From: a virus
Virus record (IMG/VR): IMGVR_UViG_3300031787_000065
Location: 15,387 to 79,386 of that record
Strand: one strand, 5' to 3'
Length of the DNA: 64,000 nt
Shown here one piece after another: positions 1 to 61,848 of this stretch; the stretch's first letter is position 1, and each line of letters opens with the position of its first letter. The position numbers and the translations under genes were made by a program. The notes under the pieces are model-generated. The model was not told the origin of the DNA. It saw only the letters and a list, made by a program, of their open reading frames with translations, and did no database searches.

Positions 1-482
1 TATTTTTGAATACGAGTGGAGCTGACTTTAATATAAATAAATGCTTTTTGATTAATAAAGAAGATCAACTAAAGTCATCAGACGGTACTTATCACAATGT
101 TTCTACTGGAGAGGCAGATAAAAATATTGGAGACATACATCTAGGCGTATCGGAATTAGCACAAATATATAAGAATTATGACGAAATAGTATTTAGATTT
201 TATGGGTCTATGCTGCCCCAATCCTTGTTTGACGCTATATACTACGGAAATAAAGTCTATTACGATCTAGAAGACGGGGAAACTCAGGGCGTTGTGGAAA
301 GTAAGCTAAAGAAAATATTCAAAGTAGACGATTTAACAAATGTTAAAGAAATCAAGAATATTGTAAAAAATAAACACACATGTTTACACAGAACAAAATC
401 CTTGCTGTCTCAGCTTCCATCACATAACATTATTAATGGGTTAGATCAGATCATAGACTATCAAAAGGGGCTAACAACATGA
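1..482 (+). CDS. Hypothetical, possibly glycosyltransferase (GT-B C-terminal-like) protein; 5' truncated
   Basis: The frame is open to the window edge, so the TTG at 6 is probably not the start. C-terminal HTCLHRTKSLL resembles the HTxxxR end of CgeB/GT1-like proteins. It lies next to a GT2 gene. Confidence 0.4.
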   Translation, partial: FLNTSGADFNINKCFLINKEDQLKSSDGTYHNVSTGEADKNIGDIHLGVSELAQIYKNYDEIVFRFYGSMLPQSLFDAIYYGNKVYYDLEDGETQGVVESKLKKIFKVDDLTNVKEIKNIVKNKHTCLHRTKSLLSQLPSHNIINGLDQIIDYQKGLTT

Positions 483-1249
483 GCGTAACAGTTGTTCTTA
501 GCGGATTTAAAAGACCACACGTTTTAAAACAACAGTTTGAAGCTATCAAGAGGCAAACTGTTGGACAGGTGCCAATCATGTTGTGGGTAAATCTAGTAGA
601 TCAAAATATTAAATTTGATAATGATATACTAAATAGTTGCGAAACTATTATATCTAATTCAGATTATGGTAGCTGGGGTAGATTCTGTATAGCTCTTAAC
701 GCTTCAACGCAGTATATTTGTGTTATAGATGATGACACTATACCGGGAAGTAAATGGCTTGAAAATTGTTTTAATACTATGGAAACTCATCGCGGAGTTT
801 TAAGTACAAGGGGCGTAATAGCTGACAAGATTTATGATTTAGAATATCCAGCACCACGTAGCTATACTCCTATAGGGTGGTGCAATCCAAACGAACAGGT
901 TATGCGTGTAGATATGGGTTGCCACTCATGGTTCTTTGAAAAAGATTGGTTACGAGCTTTCTGGATGGAAATGCCATTAACCGTACCAAAAAGATATGGT
1001 GAAGATACTCATATATCATATGTAGTAAAAAAACACTTTGGGCTAAATACATATGTTCCACCGCACCCAAAAGACGATATAGAAATGTGGGGTTCTATGC
1101 CAGAAACAGCTATAAAGTATGGCGAAGAACCAGTGGCTATTTCTATGGATTATAATGCTAATATTGGAATGAATAAATATTGGAATTTTGTTAGGTCAAA
1201 TGGCTATAACATCATAGCCCACGAAACAAAGTCGGAGAAAACAGAATGA
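479..1249 (+). CDS. Glycosyltransferase family 2 (GT-A fold)
   Basis: N-terminal VTVVLSGFKRP strand, YICVIDDDTIP DxD motif and late GED motif; ATGA overlap with the upstream gene. Confidence 0.8.
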   Translation: MSVTVVLSGFKRPHVLKQQFEAIKRQTVGQVPIMLWVNLVDQNIKFDNDILNSCETIISNSDYGSWGRFCIALNASTQYICVIDDDTIPGSKWLENCFNTMETHRGVLSTRGVIADKIYDLEYPAPRSYTPIGWCNPNEQVMRVDMGCHSWFFEKDWLRAFWMEMPLTVPKRYGEDTHISYVVKKHFGLNTYVPPHPKDDIEMWGSMPETAIKYGEEPVAISMDYNANIGMNKYWNFVRSNGYNIIAHETKSEKTE

Positions 1250-1734
1250 ATATAGGGATATATGTTAATTCTCTTAGCGATGCCAACCTAGAGTATATTT
1301 CTAACTTTATTAACGAGTCTATAGAACATCAATATGCTTCTGATGCTAGCATATTCTTTGATGATGTAGGTTACAATCCTCATAAGGTGCAGTGCGGCAT
1401 ATTTAACGCTGCTGATATTTGGAATTTTCATGGAGTTCTTATTACAACGTCGTTAGATACTCTTTCTAGTGCTAAAAATATAGTAAACAATATTGATTTA
1501 TATTATTATTATGGATATGAAGATATTTCAAAAATAAACCTATTAAATCTAATAGAGAAAACAAAGAATGTCAAAGTAATATGTAACAACGAGACAGACA
1601 GCTTAGAATTCTATAGAAAAACTGGAAAAAAACCATCCGTTATATCTGAATGCTATAAAGGTTTAGCGGCACAACTACAAGGGCACGAAAATGAATACTC
1701 AAAAAATACTACAAATGTATATAGAGCAAAATAA
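1246..1734 (+). CDS. Hypothetical protein, possible glycosyltransferase N-terminal Rossmann-like fragment
   Basis: MNIGIYV start and alpha/beta pattern; translationally coupled to the GT2 gene. Confidence 0.4.
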   Translation: MNIGIYVNSLSDANLEYISNFINESIEHQYASDASIFFDDVGYNPHKVQCGIFNAADIWNFHGVLITTSLDTLSSAKNIVNNIDLYYYYGYEDISKINLLNLIEKTKNVKVICNNETDSLEFYRKTGKKPSVISECYKGLAAQLQGHENEYSKNTTNVYRAK

Positions 1735-2458
1735 AAGCACCTATGAAATAGCAGAACATTTTAAAACTTATCCCAACAAGATTAGAAGAATTCTTATTAA
1801 GCAAGGAATTGAGCTAAAGACTAAAAGCGAGGCTCAGAAAAATGCTATAGATCGCGGTGTGGCCATACATCCAACGAGCGGCAAAACAAGAACAGCAGAA
1901 GAAAAACTTAAGATTAGCTCTAGTCTACAAAAATATTGGGATAATATGTCTGATGAAGACTATGAACAAAAAATTCATCAGTCTAGGGAGCGTTGGCATA
2001 ATATGTCAGCAGTTGAAAGAGCCAATATGATGGAAGCTGCTATAAAAGGTATACAATTAGCTGGTAAAGAGGGTTCTAAATTAGAAAAGTTTTTATACTC
2101 AGAGTTAACCGCCGCTGGATATAAAATAGATTTTCATAAAAAGCAGCTTATCCAGAATGAAAACTTAGAAATCGACATGTACGTTCCCAAGCTCAAGACT
2201 ATAATAGAGATAGACGGGCCATCCCACTTCCTTCCAATATGGGGAGAAGAAAAGCTTCAAAAGCAAATTAAGGCAGATGCCCATAAAACAGGTTTAATTT
2301 TGAGCAAAGGCATGGTAATTATACGTGTTAAAAATATATCAGACGCCCAATCGTTAGCGTCCAAAGAAAAATTGCGTCTTGACATTTTGAATTGTCTTGG
2401 TAAAATAGACAAAAACTTTCCACCACAATCAGAAAGGCTTATTGAGATAGAAATATGA
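1691..2458 (+). CDS. Vsr/DUF559 (EDxHD-like) putative homing endonuclease with N-terminal HTH
   Basis: HTH STYEIAEHFKTYPNKIRR, NUMOD3-like RTAEEKLKISSS, and catalytic-type SKLE..EIDMY..IEIDGPSH. Confidence 0.7.
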   Translation: MNTQKILQMYIEQNKSTYEIAEHFKTYPNKIRRILIKQGIELKTKSEAQKNAIDRGVAIHPTSGKTRTAEEKLKISSSLQKYWDNMSDEDYEQKIHQSRERWHNMSAVERANMMEAAIKGIQLAGKEGSKLEKFLYSELTAAGYKIDFHKKQLIQNENLEIDMYVPKLKTIIEIDGPSHFLPIWGEEKLQKQIKADAHKTGLILSKGMVIIRVKNISDAQSLASKEKLRLDILNCLGKIDKNFPPQSERLIEIEI

Positions 2459-3222
2459 GTACAACAATCGTTGAAACTGAAAACTTGTTTGCAGAAGTTG
2501 AGCTAGCTACGCCAAGCAATACCGATACTAGAACAAAAGATGTGGTGGTGTCTGACGCTCCATCAATGCTATCTGCTGAATGGCACGACTACGCAATGAC
2601 GCTATTCCATCCATCAGAAATGGTAGATGGTCACCCTCTCGTTGCTGGACTGCGAAGAGTATCAGAGGTTGTTTTGGGACCAATCATGTTTAGTGGCCCA
2701 ACGCAAGTGTTTCCAGTACAGAGAGAAGATCATCATGGTAGAGCTACCGTAGTATTTACAGTAGAATTTGCTAATGGAATGAAGTATTCAGAAGTTGCAG
2801 ACTCTTGGGAGGGTAATACTGATGACATGTTTTGTGCATTCGCTGTAGCTATTGCTAGCACAAGAGCAGAAGCCAGAGCGTTAAGAAAAGCTCTCAAGAT
2901 TAAGGGTGTGGCGGCAGAAGAACTAACTAAGAAAGATACCGCCAAGATAGTGCGAGATATCTCTTCTACCAAGACCGCTAGCGAGGGTGAATATAATGAA
3001 CAAAGTCGTATGAGCGATGCTCAGTACAATTTTATTGATGTTAAGTGTAAACAGCTAAATATCAATGGTCAGAAGCTATTTAAGAATTTCAATGTAGATA
3101 GCGGAAAGAAGGTTTCTAAGAAAACGGCAAGTGATATCATTGATGCCCTCAATGACTATCAAAGAGATAAGAGTATGATTCCAAAAGATATTATGGGCTA
3201 TGAACAGGAGTGGCGTAACTAA
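2455..3222 (+). CDS. Rad52/Sak-like single-strand annealing protein
   Basis: AIASTRAEARALRKAL helix typical of Rad52/Erf-class SSAPs, plus a C-terminal MSDAQ..SKKTASDIIDAL domain. Confidence 0.55.
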   Translation: MSTTIVETENLFAEVELATPSNTDTRTKDVVVSDAPSMLSAEWHDYAMTLFHPSEMVDGHPLVAGLRRVSEVVLGPIMFSGPTQVFPVQREDHHGRATVVFTVEFANGMKYSEVADSWEGNTDDMFCAFAVAIASTRAEARALRKALKIKGVAAEELTKKDTAKIVRDISSTKTASEGEYNEQSRMSDAQYNFIDVKCKQLNINGQKLFKNFNVDSGKKVSKKTASDIIDALNDYQRDKSMIPKDIMGYEQEWRN

Positions 3223-3557
3223 TGAAACTAACATATACTACTAAAAACGGCAGAATTAATGTAGAGGTAGAAGGAGAGTCCCAAAAGGATTTGTTTCTAG
3301 AGCTTAGTAAATTTCAAGAAGTGTTTGAAGAAACTAAGTGTGGAAAGTGCGGTTCGGAAGATCTGAGATTCGTAGTTAGGACAGTAGAGGATAATCAGTA
3401 TTACGAGCTACGATGTATGTCTTGTGGTGCTAGATTAGCATTTGGTGTACACAAGAAGGGTGGCGGGTTATTCCCCAAGCGTAAGGATAACGATGGAAAG
3501 TGGTTGCCAGATAATGGATGGGTTAAGTGGAATCCAAAAACAGAGCAATCGGAATAA
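3222..3557 (+). CDS. Zinc-ribbon protein
   Basis: CGKC and CMSC pairs; TAATG-coupled to the SSAP gene. Confidence 0.6.
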   Translation: MKLTYTTKNGRINVEVEGESQKDLFLELSKFQEVFEETKCGKCGSEDLRFVVRTVEDNQYYELRCMSCGARLAFGVHKKGGGLFPKRKDNDGKWLPDNGWVKWNPKTEQSE

Positions 3558-3567
3558 AGGAGAGTTT

Positions 3568-3855
3568 ATGAAGAATTTACTAGGCGTATTCATTCTATTA
3601 CTTGCTAGCGTTTCTTCTAATTGTTACGCTAATAATGTTATATATGTTACGCCACCACAACCAGTTCCAGTTCTACAGGTAATGGTTTATCAAGCTCCAG
3701 CTTATACCGTCATGGTTCCAGTTGTAGTGCAACCAGTACCAGTGGTAGAACAAAGAGTGGTATGGGGATATCCTTATCAACCCATGATAGTTCCAGTGGC
3801 TCAATATGGCCATTGGGGATATGATAGGCGTTGTAGGCTTATCAATCATTATTGA
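3568..3855 (+). CDS. Small secreted Pro/Val/Tyr-rich protein
   Basis: AAGGAG SD before ATG 3568 (the track start at 3442 is too long); Sec-type signal MKNLLGVFILLLASVSSNCYA. Confidence 0.7.
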   Translation: MKNLLGVFILLLASVSSNCYANNVIYVTPPQPVPVLQVMVYQAPAYTVMVPVVVQPVPVVEQRVVWGYPYQPMIVPVAQYGHWGYDRRCRLINHY

Positions 3856-27033: not shown

Positions 27034-30000
27034 TTACTTACCAAGAACTGTTTGTGATTTCACAATGTTACCACCGGGACCAACTCTATAATTTCCTAAT
27101 TCTTTAGCTAGTTGATCAAAGAGTTCTTTCTGTATTTGATCTTTAAGCGTAGACAAGAATGAAGCTCCTTGGAAGTTAACATTAATATTAGCTGTCTCTA
27201 GTTTAATCTGGAATTTAGTATTTTGTAAGTTTGTAATATTAGCAGATAGATCTTTATTAAATGTATTTAATGCACTAGCAAGATTGCTGACCACCTGTGG
27301 ATCAAGATTCACTGGTTGCATTCCGGTTAACATGGACATTAACTTGCCAACAAGTCCACCATCTGATAGATACTGTGTTCCACCGCGAATCTTGCCGCCA
27401 CGATTAGCATATGCGGTGCCGCTACCAGAAACATGATTTCCACTATTTATAGCTTTTAGTAGTTGTAGATTATTCTGCGTAGCCCTTCTATTTACAACAA
27501 ACTCTCCAGGAGTTAACATTGCTGGAACAGTATCTGTTCCGCGTGGAACAAACATGCCTCTACTAGCATAAACCATTCCTCCGCGAGCAAATCCAGATGC
27601 GGCCTCATTTCCGCGTTGTATAATTTCTTCTAGCTTAATATTAGCTTGAGATACAATAATCTCGGCTGTATTTAACTCCATTTGTGCCATATCTATGCCA
27701 ACCTGTCCAGTTTCACTTAAAACTCCACCAAGTTCTCGTATTCTTGCTCTCTTTCCTTCTTCTTCCGGTGTTGTTCCAGCTAGAGACTGAGCGGCGAATG
27801 GGCTTTGAATTCCTCTCGCAGCTAAAGCAGATTGAGCAGCCATTTCTCCAAGACCACCAGCGCCAGATAATTGTACTCCATATAGAGACTGAACACCAGC
27901 CTCCATTTGTCTTTGAATATCTTGGAAAGCTGACGCTAAAGCAGAGGCTCCAAATTGATTGATTAAACTTTCATTTCCAGTTGCAATAGCAGCCGTAGCA
28001 CCAACTGCTGCTTGTTGTTCAAAGAACTTTTCTATATCGCCAGAAATCAACGATTCCATTGACTGCTTTTCTAATTTATTCTTTTCTTGAATAATCTTAA
28101 GCTCATCTTGTTCTAGCTTAATTAATGATCTGATAGTATCTATTTGTGTTCTATAAGCTTTTTGTAAATCTCTTTGTTGTTCAGAAGCTTCAACGCCAGA
28201 AGCTCCTTGCAATCCGCCCTCTGTTCTTGCTCTTTCCTCATAAGTAGCTGCGCCAGCCCTGAGTTCTATATTTCTGCGTCTAAGTTCTTCTGCGCTACCA
28301 CTTCTGAAACCACTTAGACCTAGACGGTCGCCCTCAACATTAGCTTTTCCAAGAATGACCCCTCTTCTTTCCGCTCCGGTAACGGCCATGCCGCCAGCAC
28401 CAGCTTGTACTTCTCGTCCCTCTAGGTATAAATCTAATGCTTCTTGTTGTGCTTCAACTAACTTTCTTTCTGCTTCTATTCTCTTTTGAGTTAATTGAAT
28501 AATTACCTGTTCGGCCTTTTGTCTTTCTTGAGCAATTTTAATTATGCTTTCAATTTGTTTTTGTTGAGCTTCTCCTAATTTATTGCCAAATACTTCATAA
28601 TTTCCACCGATTATTTGATCAATTTCGTCATCTGTAAGATTAATACCCTCTATAGCTTTCTTAAGATTTTCCTTTGCTGGACCACCAACTAGATTAGAAA
28701 GTTCTGTAGCTAGCTCCTTTCTAAAATCTTCAGCATTTAATCCTTTAAAAGCTTTGTCTCCTATTCTTTGTCTAACATTTTCAAATGCTTGAGAATATTT
28801 TTGCTGAGCAGCAACGAAAGCGTTGGTATTATTTTCAAACTTAGACACAAACGCTGGAGAAACTCCTAATTTTTCTAAATTTTGCGCAACATTAGATACT
28901 GCATTTTTAATGTCTGTAGGATCCATAGCTTGAGCGGCACTGCTAACAGCTTCTCTTAAAAACTCTGCGTCGGAAACAAACGCTGAAGAACCAGCCTCAA
29001 AACTAGAAGCAAACCTCGCCATGCTCGCTGACATAGCTGTGGATGTTGCTTCCGCTCCACGTAAACCTAAATTCATTGCCTCAAATGATGCTTTAGCTCT
29101 AGCAACTTCTTTTTCAAGATTAAGTAATTCAGAGTTAATTTGATCTACTTGTCCCTTAAGTTGAATAAATGCTTCTTGCGCTGCTGCTGCACCCTCAGCG
29201 TCACCAGCCTTAGCTAAATTAGTTGCTTTGTCACTTAAATCTCGTAATCTTTGTAATTTATCATCTCTAGTACCAATTCCTAGGGCTTCTCTTCTCACCC
29301 GTTCTGGATCTTGACCTCTCGCCAAACCAGAACGTATAGCTGCTTGTCTGGCTGGAGACTGTAATTCAAAAGCTCTAGCTTGACCCTCATTGCTCTTTCT
29401 AATCATCTCTGCGCTTTGTTCACCAAGTTTATCGTCTCTTTCTTGTGCAGAATCAACATACCCAAAAGTGGCTGTAGCTCTAACGTCTCGGAAATATCCT
29501 CCCCAAGTTCTATTTCCATTTTTATCATATTGCCTATTTTCTGTATTAGATTGAGCAAAGTCTAAAGCTCTATTTTGTTGTATTGTGGCGGATTCAGTAG
29601 AGGTTCTAATTCTAGCTAATGCTTCTGATGCGGTTATAGTTCCTCTCTCAAAATCCTGCATCGCCGTGGTTGCTGTTTTTTGAGCTTGATCAAGAGATTT
29701 CTGCGTACTTATTGCTCCAGCTTGCGCAGCCGCCAAGTCAACAGCACTTTTTGTTGTTGTTTCAAAATTTGATGCTACTCCAACTAAGCCAGTACCCAAA
29801 CCAACTAAAGCTCCCACAGCGGTGCCAACGACAGGAATAAAACTTCCAATTGCAGCGCCAGCAGCAGTAGCTGCTACTACTCCACCAGCAGACCCCGCTC
29901 CGCGCTGAAAATTACTTTTTTCTAAAGCTACAGACTTAGCTTCTTCAACATTGCCGGATTTTATTGCTTTATTAAGTCTTCCTTCAAAATTATAAATACT

Positions 30001-33000
30001 TTCGGCTATAGCATTAAAGGCGGCTTGTGCTAGTGCCGCTCCACCAACAACTGCAAGCAAGGGGCCAGCGAGCTTTGCAAGCCCATTAGCTGTACCAGTT
30101 AATAATCCAGCTAAATCTTTACTGCCACCAACTCCTCTGACAGTATTGAAAACAGCTTGTTTTCCACCATTTCCAATTCCTCCACCGCTAAAGAAGTTCA
30201 TTAAGGCTTGTTTTTTCATGCTAACACCAAAGGCTTCTAGCGCAGTCATTGTCGCAAAAACAGTTGTTACACAACCAAGCAAAGAATGGCTTAATTTTGT
30301 CAGAGCGCCACTGCTTTCATCAACTGCTGGTAAAAATCCTTGAAGCAAGCTTGTTGCCATAGATGCAGCAAACATTTTATTATCTGATATCATCCCTCCC
30401 GATCCACGACTATTATTTACGCCAGCCGATCCGCCCACGCCGCCGCCAGTTCCGCCAGATCTAGCACCAACCGTTCCACCCACTGTAGACCACGGATTAG
30501 ACGGTCCAGTGGGGCTAGTTGGTGCAGTAGCTGGTCTACTACTTGTAGATGTTTTTGAAGAAGATGCAGAAGAATTTTTTGCTTTAGTATCATTATCAAG
30601 AGCTTTAATATAACGAGCCATAGCAGCTTGAATTTCTGCGTCTGACTTTCCTTGTCTTTGTAAAGAGCTAATATATTCAGAATATTTTAGAGCTATTTTT
30701 TCTTGAGCAGTTTGCGTTCTATTGTTTGCTATAGCATTAGCTCTAACAGAATCTACAAGAGCGGGAACAACCGTTTGTATGTTGGCAAATGCTAACCTTG
30801 TTTTAGCGGTTTCTGACCCAAGACCTCTTATTAGATCTGATACTGAAAATACTGTTTTTTCTAAAATACCAAAAATTCTAGGATTGATACCAAACGCTTG
30901 AGATCCAACGCGATCAAAAGATGGTTTTACTCCAGTTCCGGCAGTACCCGTGGCAAATCTTTGAACAACTCCACCCTTTGCATATCTACCAACCTTATTC
31001 ATACGATTTAACGCACCGTACCCAATATTCTGCGCAGATGCACGATTAATAACAAATTCACCAGGAGTTAGTAGTGCTGGAACAGTATCTGTACCAACGC
31101 CGCCACCAGTGGCAAAGCCTCGCCTTCTCTGTCTTGCGGCTAAGAAGCCCTTTTGCCTTTCGCTGCCACCCTCATACTCTCTAGTCGCTAAACCCTGCTT
31201 TTGCCTAAAAGTTTCTATGCGGTCTTGCTTTTCAAGTTTTGCCGCCATAGTTTTTTGATAAAGAGCAGAGTCTGGTGGTCTATATGAAAGTAAACCAAAC
31301 TGTTTTTCAAGATCATAATATTCTAACGCTAAGCTCTCAGCGCCAGTTCTGGGATTTATTTTTCTTTCTTGCATTAACTCCTTTAACTTGTCTAAAGTTA
31401 TGCCCTTACGCTTTGCGGCAGCTTTCATATCATCTATGCTATATCGCAAAGACCCAACAGTAAATAGTTCTGGTCCACCAACTTCGCCACCGGTTGCAAA
31501 TTTTTGTATTAAACCACCAAAATGTTTCTTTTGAATTTTTATGCCAGATAATACGCCATTATTAATAGAATTAATTATTTTACTAGAAATGCTACCGCTT
31601 CCAGCATCTCCATCTATGATTTTACTAGAATAAGACGCCTTTGCATCAGCTTGTTTTAGTTTAGAAATGCCGGTTTCATTTCCAAATAAAGCTGCTAATC
31701 TTTTTCTACTACCCTGTAAAGATGAGGATGGGAAATCAAAAACGGCATTGCCAGAAGCAGGCTTTGCGCCAGTTAAAGCGTCTATAACTCCTTCGTATAG
31801 ATATCCAGACGTTGTTCTAATAGCTCCAGCGTCAGATTGAATACGCTTGGCGGCAGACGAAAGCAAAGCATCATTACTGTCAATAGGTGGAATATCTAAT
31901 AACTTTTTAGAAGATACCTCGTTAGCAACAGACATTACTGCTTCTGATAATTTATTTTTTACATTGCTTTGAATAATTTGACTCAAAGATCCAGACTGTA
32001 TATCGCCAATAGAAGGATAAAATGTCTGTATTTGTCCAGCTTGAAGAATACCCTTGGCAGAAAATGTGTCTGGCTTGCCAGCCATTTTATCGCCCTTATT
32101 TTTATAAGGATTTACTCCATTTAATGACAATAATTTAGGATTTGTTATATCAAATGTTTTTTGTTTAAATGGTTTTAATCCGTCTGGAGTTCCTTCTTTG
32201 TTCATAAAGAAAGCTCCAATATTTCCGGGATCTACTGAAAACATTAATTCATCTTTATCTCTTCCAGATGTAAATTTCTTTTTCTTAGTTTGGCTTTCTG
32301 TTTTTTGTATTTTCTGTGCGCCTCTAGCTCTTGCCAATTTTTGAGCCATAGTCATTGGCCCGCCGTCTTCATATCTATTCTCATTCATCGCCGCCAAATT
32401 AGCAGCACCCAACTTTTGAACACTACTCTTTCGTATAACGAATTCTCCAGGACTTAACATGGCAGGAACAGTATCTCTATTACCAGTTCCGGGAACCATG
32501 CCACCCCTAGCAAAATGGTGAACTTTGCCACCCTTGTTGAAGGTTCTAGCGGAAGCTAAACCTCCACCAATCCCGCCAAGAAAAGAACCAAGACCTCTAG
32601 CTATTCTAATAGCAGCTAAAGCTCCTAATAATGGAAGTAGTGGCTTAATAGAATCAGCGAGCTTGATTAAAGATGTGGCTAAAGATAGGGCGGTATTAGC
32701 CATAATCTGGAATGTGGCGGTTTCTGTAATGCTACGAACTAACGCAAGAAATTCTTCTTTAACCTTAGTTATTCTAATGGCTAAAGCTTGTTGCGCAGTG
32801 GCAGCGTCTTGAGCTAAACTGTTTCCAGATTTTTGTGCAACATTAAGCGCGGATTGTGCTACTGAAAATTGTTGTAGTAATGGTAATACTTTACCAATCT
32901 GTCGGAACCCACCAAGTTCTTCTGCTACTCTAATAAATGTTAAATCACCCTCGCCAAGACCGGCTAATGCGCCACTCAATCTTTTCACAGCTTCAAATGG

Positions 33001-33885
33001 GCCAACGAACTTGCCTTCTAAGTCTACAAGCTCAACACCAAACTGTTTTAAGAATTCAATAGTTTGTGGTCGCTGAATACGTGTGAAAATAGTACGCAAG
33101 CCAGTACCAATACTTTCAGCACTTTCTCGCGTCGTTGCTCTTACTGAAGTAAATAATGCTAGTAATTCATTTAGATCTCCACCAGATGCCTTAAACACAC
33201 CGCCCGTTCTACGAATAACGTCAATTAAGTCTCCAGCTTCTACTGCGAACGCGCCAGCAACAGCATTAATAGACCCAAGCTGCTTTTCTAATGATCCAAC
33301 TCCCTCTTGGAACTGTGCTAGAATGGCAATAGCGCCTTCCGCCGTTTCAGTAATACTATCAAAGTTAGGAGCTAAAGCTGCCCTTGCCAATGATTTAAGT
33401 GCTACTTCAGTATCTTTAGAATTTAAACCAGCCTGTAATAGGATGGTAGACACTTCTAATAATGACTGAGAAGATACACCAAGGCCGGTTGATAAGTCAG
33501 TAATAGTACTAGTTAATTTACTAAGCTTACTGAGACTTTCGCCAGTAACCTGAGAAATTTTAACTAATTGTCTTTCAAAATCAATAGCTGTTTGTACAGC
33601 GTCACCAAGAGTGCTGGTAAATAAACCAACAGCCCTTGTGGCAATAGAGAAAGCTGCAAAACGACGAACAGATACAGCAAATGCTCGTCCCATCCTTTCC
33701 GCCGCAGTTGTGGCGTTATTGGTGTTCTGAGTTATTTGCTGTATTTGTCTTTGAGCTTGCTGCGCGCCTTGAACCTGTACATTAACGGTGACGTTATTTA
33801 ACTGGCTCTGTATTTGGCGAACAACTTGTGCTACATTATTGGGTGCTTGTAATTGTAATTGTGCGGTCAGTACAAATCTGGACAT
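27034..33885 (-). CDS. Tape measure protein
   Basis: 2283 aa, Ala/Gln-rich and helical; TP901-type N-terminal core (FERQLVKISQVTG..IGTGLRTIFTRI); hydrophobic Gly/Ala segments; follows the tail tube and chaperones. Confidence 0.9.
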   Translation of the reverse strand: MSRFVLTAQLQLQAPNNVAQVVRQIQSQLNNVTVNVQVQGAQQAQRQIQQITQNTNNATTAAERMGRAFAVSVRRFAAFSIATRAVGLFTSTLGDAVQTAIDFERQLVKISQVTGESLSKLSKLTSTITDLSTGLGVSSQSLLEVSTILLQAGLNSKDTEVALKSLARAALAPNFDSITETAEGAIAILAQFQEGVGSLEKQLGSINAVAGAFAVEAGDLIDVIRRTGGVFKASGGDLNELLALFTSVRATTRESAESIGTGLRTIFTRIQRPQTIEFLKQFGVELVDLEGKFVGPFEAVKRLSGALAGLGEGDLTFIRVAEELGGFRQIGKVLPLLQQFSVAQSALNVAQKSGNSLAQDAATAQQALAIRITKVKEEFLALVRSITETATFQIMANTALSLATSLIKLADSIKPLLPLLGALAAIRIARGLGSFLGGIGGGLASARTFNKGGKVHHFARGGMVPGTGNRDTVPAMLSPGEFVIRKSSVQKLGAANLAAMNENRYEDGGPMTMAQKLARARGAQKIQKTESQTKKKKFTSGRDKDELMFSVDPGNIGAFFMNKEGTPDGLKPFKQKTFDITNPKLLSLNGVNPYKNKGDKMAGKPDTFSAKGILQAGQIQTFYPSIGDIQSGSLSQIIQSNVKNKLSEAVMSVANEVSSKKLLDIPPIDSNDALLSSAAKRIQSDAGAIRTTSGYLYEGVIDALTGAKPASGNAVFDFPSSSLQGSRKRLAALFGNETGISKLKQADAKASYSSKIIDGDAGSGSISSKIINSINNGVLSGIKIQKKHFGGLIQKFATGGEVGGPELFTVGSLRYSIDDMKAAAKRKGITLDKLKELMQERKINPRTGAESLALEYYDLEKQFGLLSYRPPDSALYQKTMAAKLEKQDRIETFRQKQGLATREYEGGSERQKGFLAARQRRRGFATGGGVGTDTVPALLTPGEFVINRASAQNIGYGALNRMNKVGRYAKGGVVQRFATGTAGTGVKPSFDRVGSQAFGINPRIFGILEKTVFSVSDLIRGLGSETAKTRLAFANIQTVVPALVDSVRANAIANNRTQTAQEKIALKYSEYISSLQRQGKSDAEIQAAMARYIKALDNDTKAKNSSASSSKTSTSSRPATAPTSPTGPSNPWSTVGGTVGARSGGTGGGVGGSAGVNNSRGSGGMISDNKMFAASMATSLLQGFLPAVDESSGALTKLSHSLLGCVTTVFATMTALEAFGVSMKKQALMNFFSGGGIGNGGKQAVFNTVRGVGGSKDLAGLLTGTANGLAKLAGPLLAVVGGAALAQAAFNAIAESIYNFEGRLNKAIKSGNVEEAKSVALEKSNFQRGAGSAGGVVAATAAGAAIGSFIPVVGTAVGALVGLGTGLVGVASNFETTTKSAVDLAAAQAGAISTQKSLDQAQKTATTAMQDFERGTITASEALARIRTSTESATIQQNRALDFAQSNTENRQYDKNGNRTWGGYFRDVRATATFGYVDSAQERDDKLGEQSAEMIRKSNEGQARAFELQSPARQAAIRSGLARGQDPERVRREALGIGTRDDKLQRLRDLSDKATNLAKAGDAEGAAAAQEAFIQLKGQVDQINSELLNLEKEVARAKASFEAMNLGLRGAEATSTAMSASMARFASSFEAGSSAFVSDAEFLREAVSSAAQAMDPTDIKNAVSNVAQNLEKLGVSPAFVSKFENNTNAFVAAQQKYSQAFENVRQRIGDKAFKGLNAEDFRKELATELSNLVGGPAKENLKKAIEGINLTDDEIDQIIGGNYEVFGNKLGEAQQKQIESIIKIAQERQKAEQVIIQLTQKRIEAERKLVEAQQEALDLYLEGREVQAGAGGMAVTGAERRGVILGKANVEGDRLGLSGFRSGSAEELRRRNIELRAGAATYEERARTEGGLQGASGVEASEQQRDLQKAYRTQIDTIRSLIKLEQDELKIIQEKNKLEKQSMESLISGDIEKFFEQQAAVGATAAIATGNESLINQFGASALASAFQDIQRQMEAGVQSLYGVQLSGAGGLGEMAAQSALAARGIQSPFAAQSLAGTTPEEEGKRARIRELGGVLSETGQVGIDMAQMELNTAEIIVSQANIKLEEIIQRGNEAASGFARGGMVYASRGMFVPRGTDTVPAMLTPGEFVVNRRATQNNLQLLKAINSGNHVSGSGTAYANRGGKIRGGTQYLSDGGLVGKLMSMLTGMQPVNLDPQVVSNLASALNTFNKDLSANITNLQNTKFQIKLETANINVNFQGASFLSTLKDQIQKELFDQLAKELGNYRVGPGGNIVKSQTVLGK

Positions 33886-52652: not shown

Positions 52653-54638
52653 TTAATACACATCTTTCATTTGTTCTACAAACCAGCTTGGTCCAGTATA
52701 GAGTTTTTCAGAAGGATTTTTCTGAGCATGTCCACCGGTAGCAAAACCTCCATAAAACTGATATGCTTCTTGGGTTGGTGTGCGCTGTAGAACTCTAGCC
52801 GCCATATTTGCCATCAATAAAGCAGAATATCTATCTTTTCTCATTTTGCTCTTTTTGCCAGTACCAACTATAACTTCTGGCGTGTCCCACCTGTCTCTTC
52901 CGCTATTAGTTTGAGTCATCTGAATCATAGATAACTCATCTTTTAATTCTTCTATTTCTAGAACGCATTCTTCTAGCGTGTCAAACATTCTATTTTTTAT
53001 AGAGTCTTCAGCGTTAGATAGGCTTAATGATATTGTATCAAAATATGGGAACAATAACACCTTGTCTTCAAAATCTTTCCTCATTCCGTGATTAGCTTCT
53101 GCCAGCCAATCGTGTCTAGCGAACTGGCAGGGTTCTATAATGTGTAAACCTCGCTCTCCATCAGTATCTTTTGGTTTATCATCTTCTATAACTGGCCAGA
53201 TTGGTAGCTCTCCCTCTCTGATCTTGTCTTGATCGTGTAGAGACTCTATAACAGCTATGCCACCACCTTGAGCGTCTATTGAAATATGAATACATGGATA
53301 CAGAACCATCAAATCTCTTATTTTTCTAGCGCAATAAGAATAAAAATCTGTTTCGTTTGAGTAACCCTTTTTAACAAGTTCTTTATGTTCTGATCTTGTT
53401 GTTGTCCAGCAGTGAACAATTCTTCTATGATCTGAATTAACTTCTAGTACAATTATGCTAAAATTGTCTACTTCTGAGGCTGGGTCAACTCCAAAGATAT
53501 ATCTTTTATTTGGATCTCCCATTAAAGAAGCCTCAAAGTGTATATCATTTCCCTTAGTATCTTTAATTGAAGAGTCTTTTGTTATCACGCAAGATTCTAT
53601 AAGCGATCTCTTAAAAAAGCCTTGAGAATCTCTTGTGAAACAAGCTCCATATTCCATTTGGTAAATACCCGCATGAACGGTGGCCTTAGATCTGGCAACT
53701 TGGTCTGCGTCCATGAATCCGGGTGGAAGTAATTCATATGGCATTCTTATAATAGAATATTGTCTCCAATCAAAATTCTCGGGCGGATCTTCTCCGTTAA
53801 AAACATCTCTTAATTTAGACTGAACTCCTCTACTCTTTATAATAGACTGCCACTTTTTCCAGTATGTAGCAAAGTGATTAAAGTCATAATAAGCAGTTCC
53901 AGACAAGATAATCTGATTATCCTTTTGGTCTTTTGGGGTTTCTTCTGCTATAATTTCTACTCCCAGCTCTTTAGCTTTACTTTGTGCTGCTAATCTTTTT
54001 ACATTTTCAACCGGATCAGCACTGACCGCAGCGAAGCCAGCTACAACGTTCTCAAAAATATCTCTAGGAATAGATGCGAATTCGTCAGCAATAATATCGT
54101 TGGCTCTTTGACCTCTAATTTTCTGACCATCACCAAGTGGTAAACATGTAATTATGCTATCATTAATACGCATAACACATCTATCAGTATCTCTACGGGG
54201 ACCACTATCTGCATCACACATATCTCTTAACATTGGAGAATTTCTCCAAATTGTTTCCATATATTCAAAAACTACCTTAGACTGCCTAAACGCTGCGCCA
54301 ACAATAACAATTTTTCTACGAGGAAGCATTAATGCTCTAAGCATAGAATATACAGACAATTTGAATGATTTACCAAATCCTCGACTAGCAATAAGCATTG
54401 GAAATTTTCTTTCCCATAGCTCTTTTATAATTAAGCTCTGGGACGGAAGCAATTGTATATTTAGAATATGGTTAGCAAAAAAAGAAAGGTAGTCTGGCCT
54501 ACTCATTAACCAAGAAAGCTTAAGATGAAAGTCATCATCGGAAGACTTTAATATAGACATTGGATTAAATAGGTCTGTCTCTATTGTCTCTAGACCTAAC
54601 CAAGCCTCGTCTATAATCTTTAGCTTAGATTTACTCAT
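52653..54638 (-). CDS. terL: Terminase large subunit
   Basis: Walker A ASRGFGKS, RGQRA, Walker B IIADEF, LSGT, RNase H-like FGVDPA and KDRYSA. Confidence 0.92.
   Translation of the reverse strand: MSKSKLKIIDEAWLGLETIETDLFNPMSILKSSDDDFHLKLSWLMSRPDYLSFFANHILNIQLLPSQSLIIKELWERKFPMLIASRGFGKSFKLSVYSMLRALMLPRRKIVIVGAAFRQSKVVFEYMETIWRNSPMLRDMCDADSGPRRDTDRCVMRINDSIITCLPLGDGQKIRGQRANDIIADEFASIPRDIFENVVAGFAAVSADPVENVKRLAAQSKAKELGVEIIAEETPKDQKDNQIILSGTAYYDFNHFATYWKKWQSIIKSRGVQSKLRDVFNGEDPPENFDWRQYSIIRMPYELLPPGFMDADQVARSKATVHAGIYQMEYGACFTRDSQGFFKRSLIESCVITKDSSIKDTKGNDIHFEASLMGDPNKRYIFGVDPASEVDNFSIIVLEVNSDHRRIVHCWTTTRSEHKELVKKGYSNETDFYSYCARKIRDLMVLYPCIHISIDAQGGGIAVIESLHDQDKIREGELPIWPVIEDDKPKDTDGERGLHIIEPCQFARHDWLAEANHGMRKDFEDKVLLFPYFDTISLSLSNAEDSIKNRMFDTLEECVLEIEELKDELSMIQMTQTNSGRDRWDTPEVIVGTGKKSKMRKDRYSALLMANMAARVLQRTPTQEAYQFYGGFATGGHAQKNPSEKLYTGPSWFVEQMKDVY
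52655..52662 (-). promoter_or_regulatory. Putative late promoter TGTGTATT overlapping the TerL stop
   Basis: 40 bp upstream of the portal ATG. Confidence 0.5.
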
Positions 54639-56026: not shown

Positions 56027-56271
56027 AGAAGCTCTATTTTATCTATTCTACATTCTCTTTTAAGTTTTCTACACAGAATTCTCATGCTAATGGAGGGGTT
56101 TTGGTCCATGATCATTTTTATTAATTGATCAAAAGCAAGCCTACAGACCTCGTCTGGATCATTAGCTGATATAAAAATGGTAGGAAATGGTGAATTATAA
56201 GCCCTTAATATTAAATGTTTGATTTTGTCAAACACTCTAGATATGTCTAGCGTTACACGGTAGTTTTTCAT
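56023..56271 (-). CDS. Hypothetical protein
   Basis: Overlaps both neighbours within the operon. Confidence 0.6.
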   Translation of the reverse strand: MKNYRVTLDISRVFDKIKHLILRAYNSPFPTIFISANDPDEVCRLAFDQLIKMIMDQNPSISMRILCRKLKRECRIDKIELL

Positions 56272-57325
56272 TTAACCTATCACTTATCATTAATGATACT
56301 AAATCTGGTAAGTCATATTTTGGGATCCATCCAAGCTTTTCGTTAGCTTTTGAGCAATCTCCACGTAAATAATCTACTTCTGCTGGTCTGTAAAACTCCT
56401 TATCTACTACTACGAGATTAGACCAAGTATTTATGCCAATACGATGAAATGCTAAGTCTAAAAAGTCTCGTACTTTATAAGTTTTGCCAGTACAAATAAC
56501 ATAATCGTCTGGGATTTCTTGTTGAAGCATAAGCCACATAGCTTCAACGTAATCTCCAGCATATCCCCAATCTCTAAAGGAGTCTAAATTTCCTAATCTT
56601 AATTTGGGAATGTTTTCACCAAGCACTCTGCCGTATATATAATCTGTATCGTAGTTTAGATCTTTTAGTTCAAGCTTATTGCTCAAAAGCCAATAGTGAA
56701 AATCTACAATCCAATTTGTTATTTTCTTAGTTACAAAGTTATCTCCTCTGCGCGGTCCTTCATGATTAAAAAGTATTCCGGCACTAGCATGAAGACTATA
56801 CGCTTCTCTAAAGAGTCTTACTGCATAATGAGCGGCGCATTTAGCTATAGCATATGGAGATTGTGGTAAAAACTTAGTATTTTCATTCTGAAATTTTGTG
56901 CCATCTGGGCCAATATCGTAAGAATCACCAAACATTTCGCTGGAAGAAGCTTGGTAGAATCTAGACTGAAACATATTTAGATCTACTATTGTCTGTAGAA
57001 TATTAATACAGCCTTTACCGGTAATATCCCAGGTAATAGCTGGTTGTTTGAATGATGTTCCTACATGAGACTGCGCTGCCAAGTTATAGATTTCATCTAC
57101 ATCGACGTTACTCCGAAGTAGATTAGAGACACTATAAGAATCGGTAATATCCCCCTCAACAAGCTTGAAGCGATCATTAGAAAGTAAATGTTTTATTCTT
57201 TGAGTTGTATCAACGCTAGATCGTCGCATTACCCCAACTACCTTGCTATACTCTTTTGATAATAGAAGGTCTGCTAAGTGGCTTCCATCTTGTCCCGTTA
57301 CTCCAAAAATAATCGCAGTTTTCAT
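56237..57325 (-). CDS. gmd: GDP-mannose 4,6-dehydratase
   Basis: GVTGQDGS, YNLAAQSHV, QASSSE, YAIAK, FNHE, LGNLD..RDWG, RPAEVD. Confidence 0.95.
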   Translation of the reverse strand: MKTAIIFGVTGQDGSHLADLLLSKEYSKVVGVMRRSSVDTTQRIKHLLSNDRFKLVEGDITDSYSVSNLLRSNVDVDEIYNLAAQSHVGTSFKQPAITWDITGKGCINILQTIVDLNMFQSRFYQASSSEMFGDSYDIGPDGTKFQNENTKFLPQSPYAIAKCAAHYAVRLFREAYSLHASAGILFNHEGPRRGDNFVTKKITNWIVDFHYWLLSNKLELKDLNYDTDYIYGRVLGENIPKLRLGNLDSFRDWGYAGDYVEAMWLMLQQEIPDDYVICTGKTYKVRDFLDLAFHRIGINTWSNLVVVDKEFYRPAEVDYLRGDCSKANEKLGWIPKYDLPDLVSLMISDRLNEKLPCNARHI

Positions 57326-59546: not shown

Positions 59547-59618
59547 GTAACACGGGGAATAACACTGTTTGATCCAAATCTAGTTAACGAACGTACTATA
59601 TAATACAAGGAGGTGGCG

Positions 59619-60806
59619 ATGAGCAAGGATGCTAAATTACATATTGAAAATCTAGAGAATAGGCTTGCACTAACTGGTGCCATTGTGGCTTTTGTTGATT
59701 CTGGCATAGATCTTAATCATAAAGACTTATCAGAGAATATATGGACAAATCCTAGTGAAAAAGTAGACGGAATTGATAACGACAATAACGGGTACATTGA
59801 CGATATTAATGGGTGGGATTTTGCAAATAACGACAATATTCCACAGGACGATTTTTATCACGGAACGCACATTGCGGGAATAGTTGATTCTGTTAGTAAA
59901 AATACTGTCACATTAATGCCCCTTAAGTTCCAAAACTATCAAGGATTGGGATATACGGGGGCGGCGGCGACAGCTATTAACTATGCTACTAAGATGAAAC
60001 TGCGTGGACATAATATAGCGGCTATTAATTTAAGCTGGGGAGGCGGAACTTCATCGTCTCTAGCACTGTATAATGCTATAAAAAATGCTAGTGATGCTGG
60101 AATAGTTGTGGTTATAGCTGCTGGGAACAACTCATCTGATAATGATCTACTGCCACGATATCCTTCGTCATATAAGTTCAACAATACTATTAGTGTGGCT
60201 GGACTCAACTCTAATATGACTCTAGCCGGATATTCTAATTATGGAAAAAATAGTGTTGAGATTGGGGCGATTGGAACGGCGTATTCAACACTTCCTGGAA
60301 ATAATTACGGAACAATTAGTGGAACTAGTATGGCGGCTCCAAATGTGAGCGCAGCAGTAGCAATGCTGAAGAACGTTAATGTTAATTATGGGGCAAATCA
60401 GATTAAGTGGGCAATATTGTCTACGGCTAAGATGGTAGCTGGATTGGTGGATAGAGTAACCTATGGATACTTGGATATTCAAGGGGCTATGGGGCTAAAT
60501 ATGGTTCCAAAGCCAGATATCATACCAATTCAGCCACCACAGCCAATAGTAGTTCCAATAGTTGAGAGCCATGCGCACGTAGTTTCAGTAAACAAACATT
60601 ACGTTAAAACGCAGACTCAAGACGGGGCTGGTAGATTAACAATTAAAATAAACAATAGGGTCAGATATGAGTCTGATGTGTCGGGGTATTCAAGTGTAGC
60701 GATAAAGAGGTGGATGACTAAGCGGTACAATAATGTTACCGTAGTTTTCAAGAGTAATCTGGGCAAAGAGTCAATAATTTATCAAGGGTCTTTGAGGGCA
60801 AGATAA
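59619..60806 (+). CDS. Subtilisin-like S8 protease with planctomycete-type LExRxLL leader
   Basis: VDSG (Asp), HGTHIAG (His), AAGN, GTSMAAP (Ser); DGIDNDNNGYIDD Ca-loop; leader LHIENLENRLAL; AGGAGG SD before ATG 59619. Confidence 0.9.
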   Translation: MSKDAKLHIENLENRLALTGAIVAFVDSGIDLNHKDLSENIWTNPSEKVDGIDNDNNGYIDDINGWDFANNDNIPQDDFYHGTHIAGIVDSVSKNTVTLMPLKFQNYQGLGYTGAAATAINYATKMKLRGHNIAAINLSWGGGTSSSLALYNAIKNASDAGIVVVIAAGNNSSDNDLLPRYPSSYKFNNTISVAGLNSNMTLAGYSNYGKNSVEIGAIGTAYSTLPGNNYGTISGTSMAAPNVSAAVAMLKNVNVNYGANQIKWAILSTAKMVAGLVDRVTYGYLDIQGAMGLNMVPKPDIIPIQPPQPIVVPIVESHAHVVSVNKHYVKTQTQDGAGRLTIKINNRVRYESDVSGYSSVAIKRWMTKRYNNVTVVFKSNLGKESIIYQGSLRAR

Positions 60807-60861: not shown

Positions 60862-61848
60862 ATGTCAAGACCAAAAGGGTCAAAAGACTCAAAAAAAAGA
60901 AGAACTAGAAATCAATATGGATTTAGCAAGCAAGATATAGATACGATAAACAAACTAAAAAATCAACATAAAACCAATAAGGATATAGAGAGAGTTACTG
61001 GTTTTAGTAAATCTCAAATTAACAAGATATGCAAAGAGAACAATATTAAGCAAATAGATAATAAAATAATATCAGAAAAAGAAGAATTAATATTAGATGA
61101 AAGTAAAGAAGAAATATGCGGAATTTATATTATTCAATTATTTAGAAAAGATGGATATCAAGGATATTATATTGGTAGCTCAACAAATATAAGAAAAAGA
61201 TGCGTGTCACATCAAAGATTGTTACAAATTAACAACCATTATAATGCTAGGCTGCAAGAGGATTTTAATAATAAAAAGTCTATCAAATATAAAATATGGT
61301 CTATAGAACCAGAATCTGATTTATTAAAAATAGAAAATAATCTTATAAGTCAATATGCGGGACTATATAACACTTGGAGCGCTGTAAATGCTGGTGATAT
61401 TAAAGAATATATAGATTTAGCTATCGAGAAAATAAATGCAAGATATACAGTAGATGTAAATGATGGATGTTGGCTTTATAAATACAAAAGAAAAGATGGA
61501 TACGGTAGGGATATAGGAATTAATATTGATGGTAGAAAAAAATATCTAAAGCCACATCGCGTATCTTACTATGCGCATTATCAAGATTATCCAGAATTAA
61601 TTAGGCATAAATGTAATAATAAGCTTTGCATAAATCCAGAACATTTAGAACCTGGAAGCTATAGAGATAATGGGTTAGATAAGACTCTGTCAAAGTGGCA
61701 AGAGTTTAAAGACAAGTGGAAAGAATACAATGGAGACTATACTAGGATCACAGAGTATTTTGGATACAAAAAGAATTACAAATCATCAAGTGGACAAGAA
61801 TATTATTGTCATATCAAAGCAATCGCTAAAAAGCTTGGGTTGGTTTAA
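60862..61848 (+). CDS. Putative homing endonuclease: HTH + GIY-YIG + HNH (Zn-loop) fusion
   Basis: CGIYII..YYIGSS..R..H and E/N residues; GCW..HRVSY..RHKCNNKLCINPEHL..N; N-terminal RPKGSK and HTH. Confidence 0.8.
   Translation: MSRPKGSKDSKKRRTRNQYGFSKQDIDTINKLKNQHKTNKDIERVTGFSKSQINKICKENNIKQIDNKIISEKEELILDESKEEICGIYIIQLFRKDGYQGYYIGSSTNIRKRCVSHQRLLQINNHYNARLQEDFNNKKSIKYKIWSIEPESDLLKIENNLISQYAGLYNTWSAVNAGDIKEYIDLAIEKINARYTVDVNDGCWLYKYKRKDGYGRDIGINIDGRKKYLKPHRVSYYAHYQDYPELIRHKCNNKLCINPEHLEPGSYRDNGLDKTLSKWQEFKDKWKEYNGDYTRITEYFGYKKNYKSSSGQEYYCHIKAIAKKLGLV

Follow-up and report, generated by a model that had tools for sequence, protein, structure and literature searches.

A conserved domain with a putative PD-(D/E)xK-like core at a fixed position in the tape measure proteins of uncultured long-tailed phages

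In phage λ, the tape measure protein (TMP) lies in the tail tube as a trimer whose C-terminus gpI holds at the tip, and is released before the DNA (PMC10721106). Some TMPs carry enzymatic domains: the Tmp of mycobacteriophage TM4 has an embedded peptidoglycan-hydrolase motif (Piuri and Hatfull 2006, cited in PMC13277306), and T5 pb2 contains a C-terminal metallopeptidase domain that is muralytic (PMC10038345). Contractile injection systems, too, have effectors related to TMPs (PMC13277306). Here we describe a domain spanning residues 546–785 of a 2283-residue TMP encoded by an uncultured phage. The analysed stretch of 64,000 nucleotides (hereafter the window) covers bases 15387–79386 of a single virus contig of 79,386 bp with ~36% G+C (IMG/VR record IMGVR_UViG_3300031787_000065). 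We give an even chance to the reading that this domain is a divergent PD-(D/E)xK-like metal-dependent phosphodiesterase, fixed in a TMP family and delivered on infection. The literature searched contained no description of a TMP with a nuclease domain.

The TMP gene (P0001) is an open reading frame (ORF) of 6852 nt at window positions 27034–33885 on the minus strand, as given by the ORF list and its translation; all features of the protein described below lie on that strand. Its product is the TP901-type TMP of a long-tailed phage. We make this assignment because residues 127–312 match the Pfam family PhageMin_Tail (PF10145; E = 6e-23, 82 bits against a cut-off of 33), several PHROG tape-measure families match the 2283-aa protein, the protein is very long, and its gene stands in a run of co-oriented large ORFs on the strand that encodes the terminase.

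The first-pass annotation had placed a PD-(D/E)xK nuclease-like cargo in the Lys-rich segment between YEDGG (residues 505–509) and the sequences HFGG (residues 788–791) and FATGGEV (residues 796–802). Translation bore out these bracketing sequences together with three internal motifs: GYLYEG (motif I; residues 694–699, window 31789–31806), VFDF (motif II; residues 715–718, window 31732–31743) and QADAKAS (motif III, the (D/E)xK motif; residues 745–751, window 31633–31653). The segment is indeed rich in Lys (11.7% in residues 510–790 versus 6.0% over the whole TMP) and is not a coiled coil, AlphaFold2 giving a mixed α/β globule over residues 546–785. The order of the motifs is by itself no evidence, being no more than chance would provide, because a match to the permissive pattern E-x(15-35)-D-x(10-35)-(D/E)-x-K turns up in ~60% of segment shuffles. 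The ease with which this pattern arises favours an explanation in which the domain is a purely structural docking or spacer module for tail assembly, making contacts with chaperone, tube or terminator; its charged residues would then be buried salt bridges and the nuclease-like motif a coincidence.

What raises the motifs above chance is their conservation. We searched 1.84 billion representative proteins exhaustively with HMMER and obtained 85 proteins at E ≤1e-3, with 55 at E ≤1e-10; columns were counted over 98 domain copies from 95 proteins (~85 clusters at 50% identity). G694 (98/98), E698 (97/98), D717 (97/97) and K749 (95/96) are near-invariant, while position 747 is occupied by Asp in 77 and by Glu in 19 of 96 copies; D/E exchange is seen nowhere else among the near-invariant polar residues. 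F734 (92/96) and K769 (89/93) are also kept, and no other charged column approaches the conservation of E698, D717, D/E747, K749 and K769. Homologues at ~25–35% identity retain GxhFE(G/S/N), hDF and (D/E)(A/L)K, motif III taking the form ExK in P0093, P0088, P0097, P0113 and L007. Interchange of D and E at the first position of the third motif is a property of the PD-(D/E)xK superfamily, and the acidic/Lys signature of that superfamily, E...D...(D/E)xK, is found over the 98 copies, with P0094 as the exception. The conserved core comprises residues ~614–793: in distant homologues, residues 546–612 are replaced and matches start near residue 613. The first-pass annotation had made its reading depend on the conservation of these residues in homologues, and it is there that E698, D717, D/E747 and K749 proved near-invariant. 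The three motifs thus mark a real family as its functional signature.

The same columns speak against a purely structural module. The invariant positions are few and polar, come with invariant glycines and are surrounded by a surface that varies freely; a D/E exchange beside a fixed Lys, as at 747 and K749, typifies sites of catalysis or metal binding. The constant architecture described next, in which the domain is flanked by modules resembling λ gpH, fits a structural role, as does the lack of a significant fold match reported below. On balance, we regard the purely structural explanation as quite improbable.

The position of the domain is constant too. The ~75 TMPs of at least 1400 aa that were examined share one order: a first GG..DTVPAxLxPGEFV module close to residue 471, next the domain, then a second module (either right after the domain or after a further insert), a long body rich in Ala, Gly and Gln, and a last module ~150 residues before the C-terminus. 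Across the family, the domain always comes after the first gpH-like GG..PGEFV module, within the quarter to third of the TMP nearest the head. Because this architecture is constant across the ~75 TMPs, the domain is a fixed component of the TMP lineage and not a sporadic insert, and the term ‘cargo’ in the first-pass annotation was misleading. In the TMP described here, module 1, FARGG..DTVPAMLSPGEFV..NRYEDGG (residues ~455–509, window 32359–32523), forms the N-terminal boundary of the segment, and HFGGLIQKFATGGEV (residues 788–802, window 31480–31524) forms the C-terminal one. All three modules have the form GG..DTVPAxLTPGEFV..GG; modules 2 and 3 lie at residues ~924–990 (at 933; window 30916–31116) and ~2105–2160 (at 2118; window ~27400–27535), respectively. 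A module-containing profile matches residues 724–785 of λ gpH (8iyk_H, E 1e-3), outside the domain. Homologous TMPs carry from 0 to 5 copies of the GG..DTVPAxLTPGEFV..GG module at conserved relative positions, and this module also occurs in short phage proteins with lysozyme (PF00959) or LysM domains. A second insert of ~120 aa (residues 803–923, window 31117–31479), basic and ending in ARQRRRG, separates the domain from module 2; it is missing from many homologues, where module 2 adjoins the domain.

Nearly all homologues are proteins of 1500–3700 aa, with PF10145 wherever that annotation exists. The few short HMMER matches are mostly fragments on short contigs, and most of the short proteins from the profile search either lie on short contigs or match the PGEFV module alone; two short homologues are on long contigs, of 140 kb for P0034 (349 aa) and of 49 kb for P0106 (304 aa). 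A single-sequence search found no stand-alone homologue among proteins of 108–345 aa, and each of six IMG/VR loci falls within a reading frame open for >2100 aa. The family members all come from metagenomes (TARA ocean samples, JGI and ENA). The named sources, among them TARA ocean samples and a fragment of a Crocinitomicaceae metagenome-assembled genome, point to aquatic hosts. Among cultured phages, tblastn against 50,697 GenBank phage records gave no match, and no prophage relatives were found in 185,579 GTDB species-representative genomes.

We used AlphaFold2 with a 48-row alignment to model residues 486–812. The model has a mean predicted local distance difference test score (pLDDT) of 82 and a predicted template-modelling score of 0.71, with pLDDT >90 over residues 546–785. 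A Lys-rich, low-confidence linker (residues 510–545, window 32251–32358; model residues 25–60, pLDDT 43–65) leads into a β-rich N-terminal sub-domain of seven strands (residues 546–622, window 32020–32250; strands at model residues 62–137, pLDDT >90). This sub-domain is closed by the strand GxIxxF(F/Y)P (residues 617–624), in which G617, F622 and P624 are conserved. A long helical hairpin follows (residues 633–705, window 31771–31989), built of helices 633–659, 672–683 and 686–705 (model residues 148–174, 187–198 and 201–220). Its second arm bears motif I, with G694 and E698 inside helix 686–705. A loop leads from this helix to D717; three short helices then span residues 720–741 and precede strand 745–751 (model residues 260–266), which contains D747-A-K749. 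Because D747 and K749 stand in one β-strand of the model, their side chains point to the same side. Helix 766–775 (model residues 281–290) bears K769 (window 31579–31581), the conserved Lys that follows motif III, and the last strand comprises residues 782–785. From residue 786 onward, the model passes into a low-confidence linker, with pLDDT <55 after model residue 300.

The model puts the signature residues in the elements expected of a PD-(D/E)xK site, canonically α1, the start of β2 and the neighbouring β3: the Glu is in a helix, the Asp directly precedes F718, a β-bridge residue, and (D/E)xK lies within a β-strand. The proposed core, resembling the restriction-endonuclease (REase) fold, spans residues 686–785 (window 31531–31830) and would run helix(E)-β(D)-helical insert-β((D/E)xK)-helix(K769)-β. 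A second model, of residues 684–793 alone, is poorer (pLDDT 66), which shows that the core depends on the remainder of the domain. Both models make F718 a β-bridge residue; the smaller one has a single other such residue, A746, so that in it the strand of D717 pairs with the (D/E)xK strand.

Structural comparisons gave different pictures for the two models. For the whole-domain model, VIA matches are dominated by the hairpin of residues 633–705, and REase-fold proteins are absent from the 100 rows listed. For the sub-domain model, small PD-(D/E)xK nucleases account for 10 of the best 50 VIA rows, which are otherwise weak matches, and tRNA-splicing endonuclease chains with that fold for five more. 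The rows include the N-terminal domain of AF1548 (1y88), the C-terminal domain of NucS (2vld), VRR-NUC (4qbn and 4qbo), Cfr10I (1cfr), an XisH-like protein (2okf), Vsr (1cw0), Hjc (1gef) and λ-exonuclease/YqaJ-like proteins (3syy and 3k93), entries that we take to have the REase fold (SCOP fold c.52, Pfam clan CL0236). For the small nucleases, the aligned stretch starts at the first helix, residues 1–95 of Hjc falling on model residues 7–102, a range that is compatible with E698 being the Glu of α1. Foldseek and a second-look VIA search with the sub-domain model gave no significant match. The marked excess of REase-fold rows provides moderate support for an REase-like core; if the domain were purely structural, that excess would have to be accidental.

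The small PD-(D/E)xK nucleases (Hjc, VRR-NUC, NucS, AF1548 and the λ-exonuclease/YqaJ-like enzymes) resemble the TMP domain in the order of helix-borne Glu, strand-borne Asp and strand-borne (D/E)xK, and in the interchange of D and E. Hjc carries a Gly four residues before its Glu, as do G694 and E698 here. The C-terminal ~100 residues of the domain could be a divergent PD-(D/E)xK core, in which the helix-borne E698, D717 from one strand and D747-x-K749 from the strand beside it would form the site of a metal-dependent phosphodiesterase.

Several observations weigh against this assignment. Foldseek searches of PDB and BFVD with the whole-domain model returned nothing below E 0.09. Library scans took in the segment and up to ten homologous fragments (for Pfam, residues 486–812 and nine fragments) and revealed no link to any nuclease family in Pfam (E ≤1), PHROGs, NCBIfam or PADLOC (E ≤5). 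Single-sequence and profile searches of PDB sequences at E ≤10 found only λ gpH, at the flanking module, and an hhalign comparison with the phage’s own Cas4-like PDDEXK_1 protein gave a probability of 0.06, over a stretch that misses the catalytic motifs of that protein. The geometry is also atypical. E698 and D717 are 19 residues apart, of which 7 are still helical, so there is no room for a canonical β1; the 30 residues from D717 to D747, with three short helices where a hairpin is usual, are at the far end of known spacings; and the strand that precedes (D/E)xK is unusually polar (L-K-Q-A-D-A-K). A very divergent copy in the homologous TMP P0094 (residues ~640–700) has DAR in place of (D/E)xK, with GNFFEN and PFDF kept, the only departure at motif III seen in the family. 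Finally, three folded globules of 27 kDa at one axial level would fit poorly in the lumen of a tail tube. The fold, if it is REase-like, is rearranged, with strand 617–622 as a candidate for the missing first strand. Such a topology would take its first strand from upstream and hold a helical insert between β2 and β3. The AlphaFold and Foldseek check proposed in the first-pass annotation thus yielded a confident fold and, with no E below 0.09, no significant REase-fold match; the PD-(D/E)xK reading held up in the conservation and secondary-structure context of its motifs, and found no significant structural or profile match. In a separate ESM Atlas feature search, the best score was 0.87, below the level at which we count a match, and a cluster with P22 gp16 in 18% of members is a lead only.

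The DAR of P0094 would also fit a nuclease-like fold that binds nucleic acid or metal without cutting, for instance in holding or piloting the leading end of the genome, which adjoins the head-proximal part of the TMP, or in shielding that end from host exonucleases. The structural and motif evidence is the same for such a protein as for a phosphodiesterase, and non-catalytic PD-(D/E)xK domains are known. The location in the N-terminal third of the TMP suits it as well, given that in λ DNA enters the tube from the head side and the C-terminus is at the tip (PMC10721106). Against a non-cutting role, all four catalytic-type residues are kept in ~100 divergent copies, as active sites are, whereas derivatives that only bind usually drop some of them. 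We assign this explanation a small chance.

The absence of a significant PDB or BFVD match for the whole-domain model leaves room for an enzyme of a new fold, whose Glu/Asp/Asp/Lys site would act on cell wall, polysaccharide or lipid in the envelope and help the TMP to cross. Enzymatic inserts known from TMPs hydrolyse the cell wall, as in T5 pb2 (PMC10038345) and TM4 Tmp (Piuri and Hatfull 2006, cited in PMC13277306). In the domain described here, 19 residues separate the acidic pair and the Glu is helix-borne, an arrangement that also recalls lysozyme-type sites. However, peptidoglycan-hydrolase families (lysozyme-like/SLT, M23, NlpC/P60, Rpf-like) gave no Pfam match to residues 486–812 or to the nine homologous fragments, and none of the fold-search lists contains a lysozyme-like, M23, NlpC/P60 or peptidase structure, although lysozyme-like, M23 and NlpC/P60 folds are abundant in PDB. 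An envelope enzyme would moreover account neither for the (D/E)xK strand nor for the surplus of rows with the REase fold, and we consider it unlikely. Two narrower candidates were rejected: an SLT/lysozyme reading of the ‘E-G-x-x-x-A-x-T-G-A’ helix, for which there was no lysozyme-like fold match, and a protease reading, for which there was no protease signature.

For the divergent PD-(D/E)xK-like phosphodiesterase that we prefer, the λ system suggests a route of delivery. By analogy, the TMP would form a trimer, have its C-terminus placed at the tip of the tail and be expelled ahead of the DNA. Residues 546–785 of 2283, in the head-proximal third, would leave the tail last, next to the leading end of the DNA, and the domain could attack nucleic acid there, either at the host envelope or within it. 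Possible targets are host DNA, resident foreign DNA or the phage’s own entering end. On any enzymatic reading, three folded 27-kDa globules at one level would crowd the tube lumen, so the domain may be stored partly unfolded or near the neck. On the strongest form of this proposal, to which we give a less than even chance, an active PD-(D/E)xK-type nuclease is present in the TMP of a large family of uncultured aquatic siphophages, and three copies are shot in ahead of the genome. It could conceivably serve as a ‘first-strike’ nuclease against host DNA, resident plasmids, prophages or nucleic-acid-based defences, which would give it an anti-defence role, or process the entering genome end.

Compared with the described systems, the TMP domain shares with the TM4 Tmp and T5 pb2 domains that it is globular, probably catalytic and carried by a TMP, and would thus be expected in the host envelope at the start of infection. 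Those domains are muralytic, recognizable by Pfam and near the C-terminus, whereas the present one lies in the N-terminal third, matches no muralytic family and has residues that suggest a phosphodiesterase. λ gpH (853 aa) has the same role of trimeric ruler (PMC10721106), and its residues 724–785 are homologous to the modules that bracket the domain. It contains one module and no counterpart of residues 546–785, whereas the TMP described here, at 2.7 times the length, carries three modules. A likeness of concept alone links it to secretion-system effectors in which a PD-(D/E)xK DNase is carried on an injected component of a phage-tail-like machine, such as the PoNe-type effectors of type VI secretion systems, and to the TMP-related effectors of contractile injection systems (PMC13277306). 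Those effectors are inter-bacterial weapons, the nucleases among them having cognate immunity proteins, whereas here the protein belongs to a phage virion and no immunity gene is evident.

The genes around the TMP gene offer few further assignments. Downstream of it, a run of very large ORFs occupies window 4659–27030 on the minus strand (1576, 2197, 614, 280, 1585 and 1202 aa); by their position, these are presumably tail genes. FG-GAP repeats in the 2197-aa protein are the sole Pfam match among the four largest neighbouring ORFs scanned. The eight neighbouring ORFs scanned gave zero matches in PHROGs, and no specific tail family was found in Pfam either. The terminase large subunit is encoded at window 52653–54638, on the same minus strand as the TMP.

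Elsewhere on the contig, the phage encodes a stand-alone PD-(D/E)xK nuclease, the Cas4-like protein compared above, on the plus strand and outside the window (L003:1009–2034, corresponding to genome bases 1009–2034). It matches PF12705 (PDDEXK_1; E 6e-22) and shows the Cas4/RecB-like motifs IDLV, VDWKT and QLLLYNY. DNA polymerase III alpha is split (L003:5121–8980, plus strand), one ORF of 539 aa encoding the PHP and NTPase domains and another of 535 aa the finger domain; a 226-aa ORF for an RNase_T/DnaQ-like exonuclease lies between the two, and a gene for a GIY-YIG protein (L003:3985–4845) just upstream of them. A 328-aa protein with GIY-YIG and HNH_3 domains is encoded at window 60862–61848 (plus strand), and its gene adjoins that of a subtilase (Peptidase_S8, E 5e-42; window 59613–60806, plus strand). 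Genes for GDP-mannose 4,6-dehydratase and several GT1/GT2 glycosyltransferases are found at window 56237–57325 (minus strand) and 1–3855 (plus strand) and at L003:9275–12132.

TMP-embedded enzymes are already known; what is probably new here is an enzyme-like domain in a TMP with a probable divergent PD-(D/E)xK core. Even if it is not a nuclease, the domain would suit both structure determination and the definition of a new family: it forms ~85 clusters at 50% identity, belongs to no curated family and has no significant match to a solved structure. If it is one, a TMP-borne nuclease would be a virion effector unlike the known wall-attacking TMP inserts, and it would arrive in the cell ahead of all phage gene expression. 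Such a protein would bear on how phages pre-empt the DNA-based defences of their hosts and on the extent to which TMPs enter the cytoplasm.

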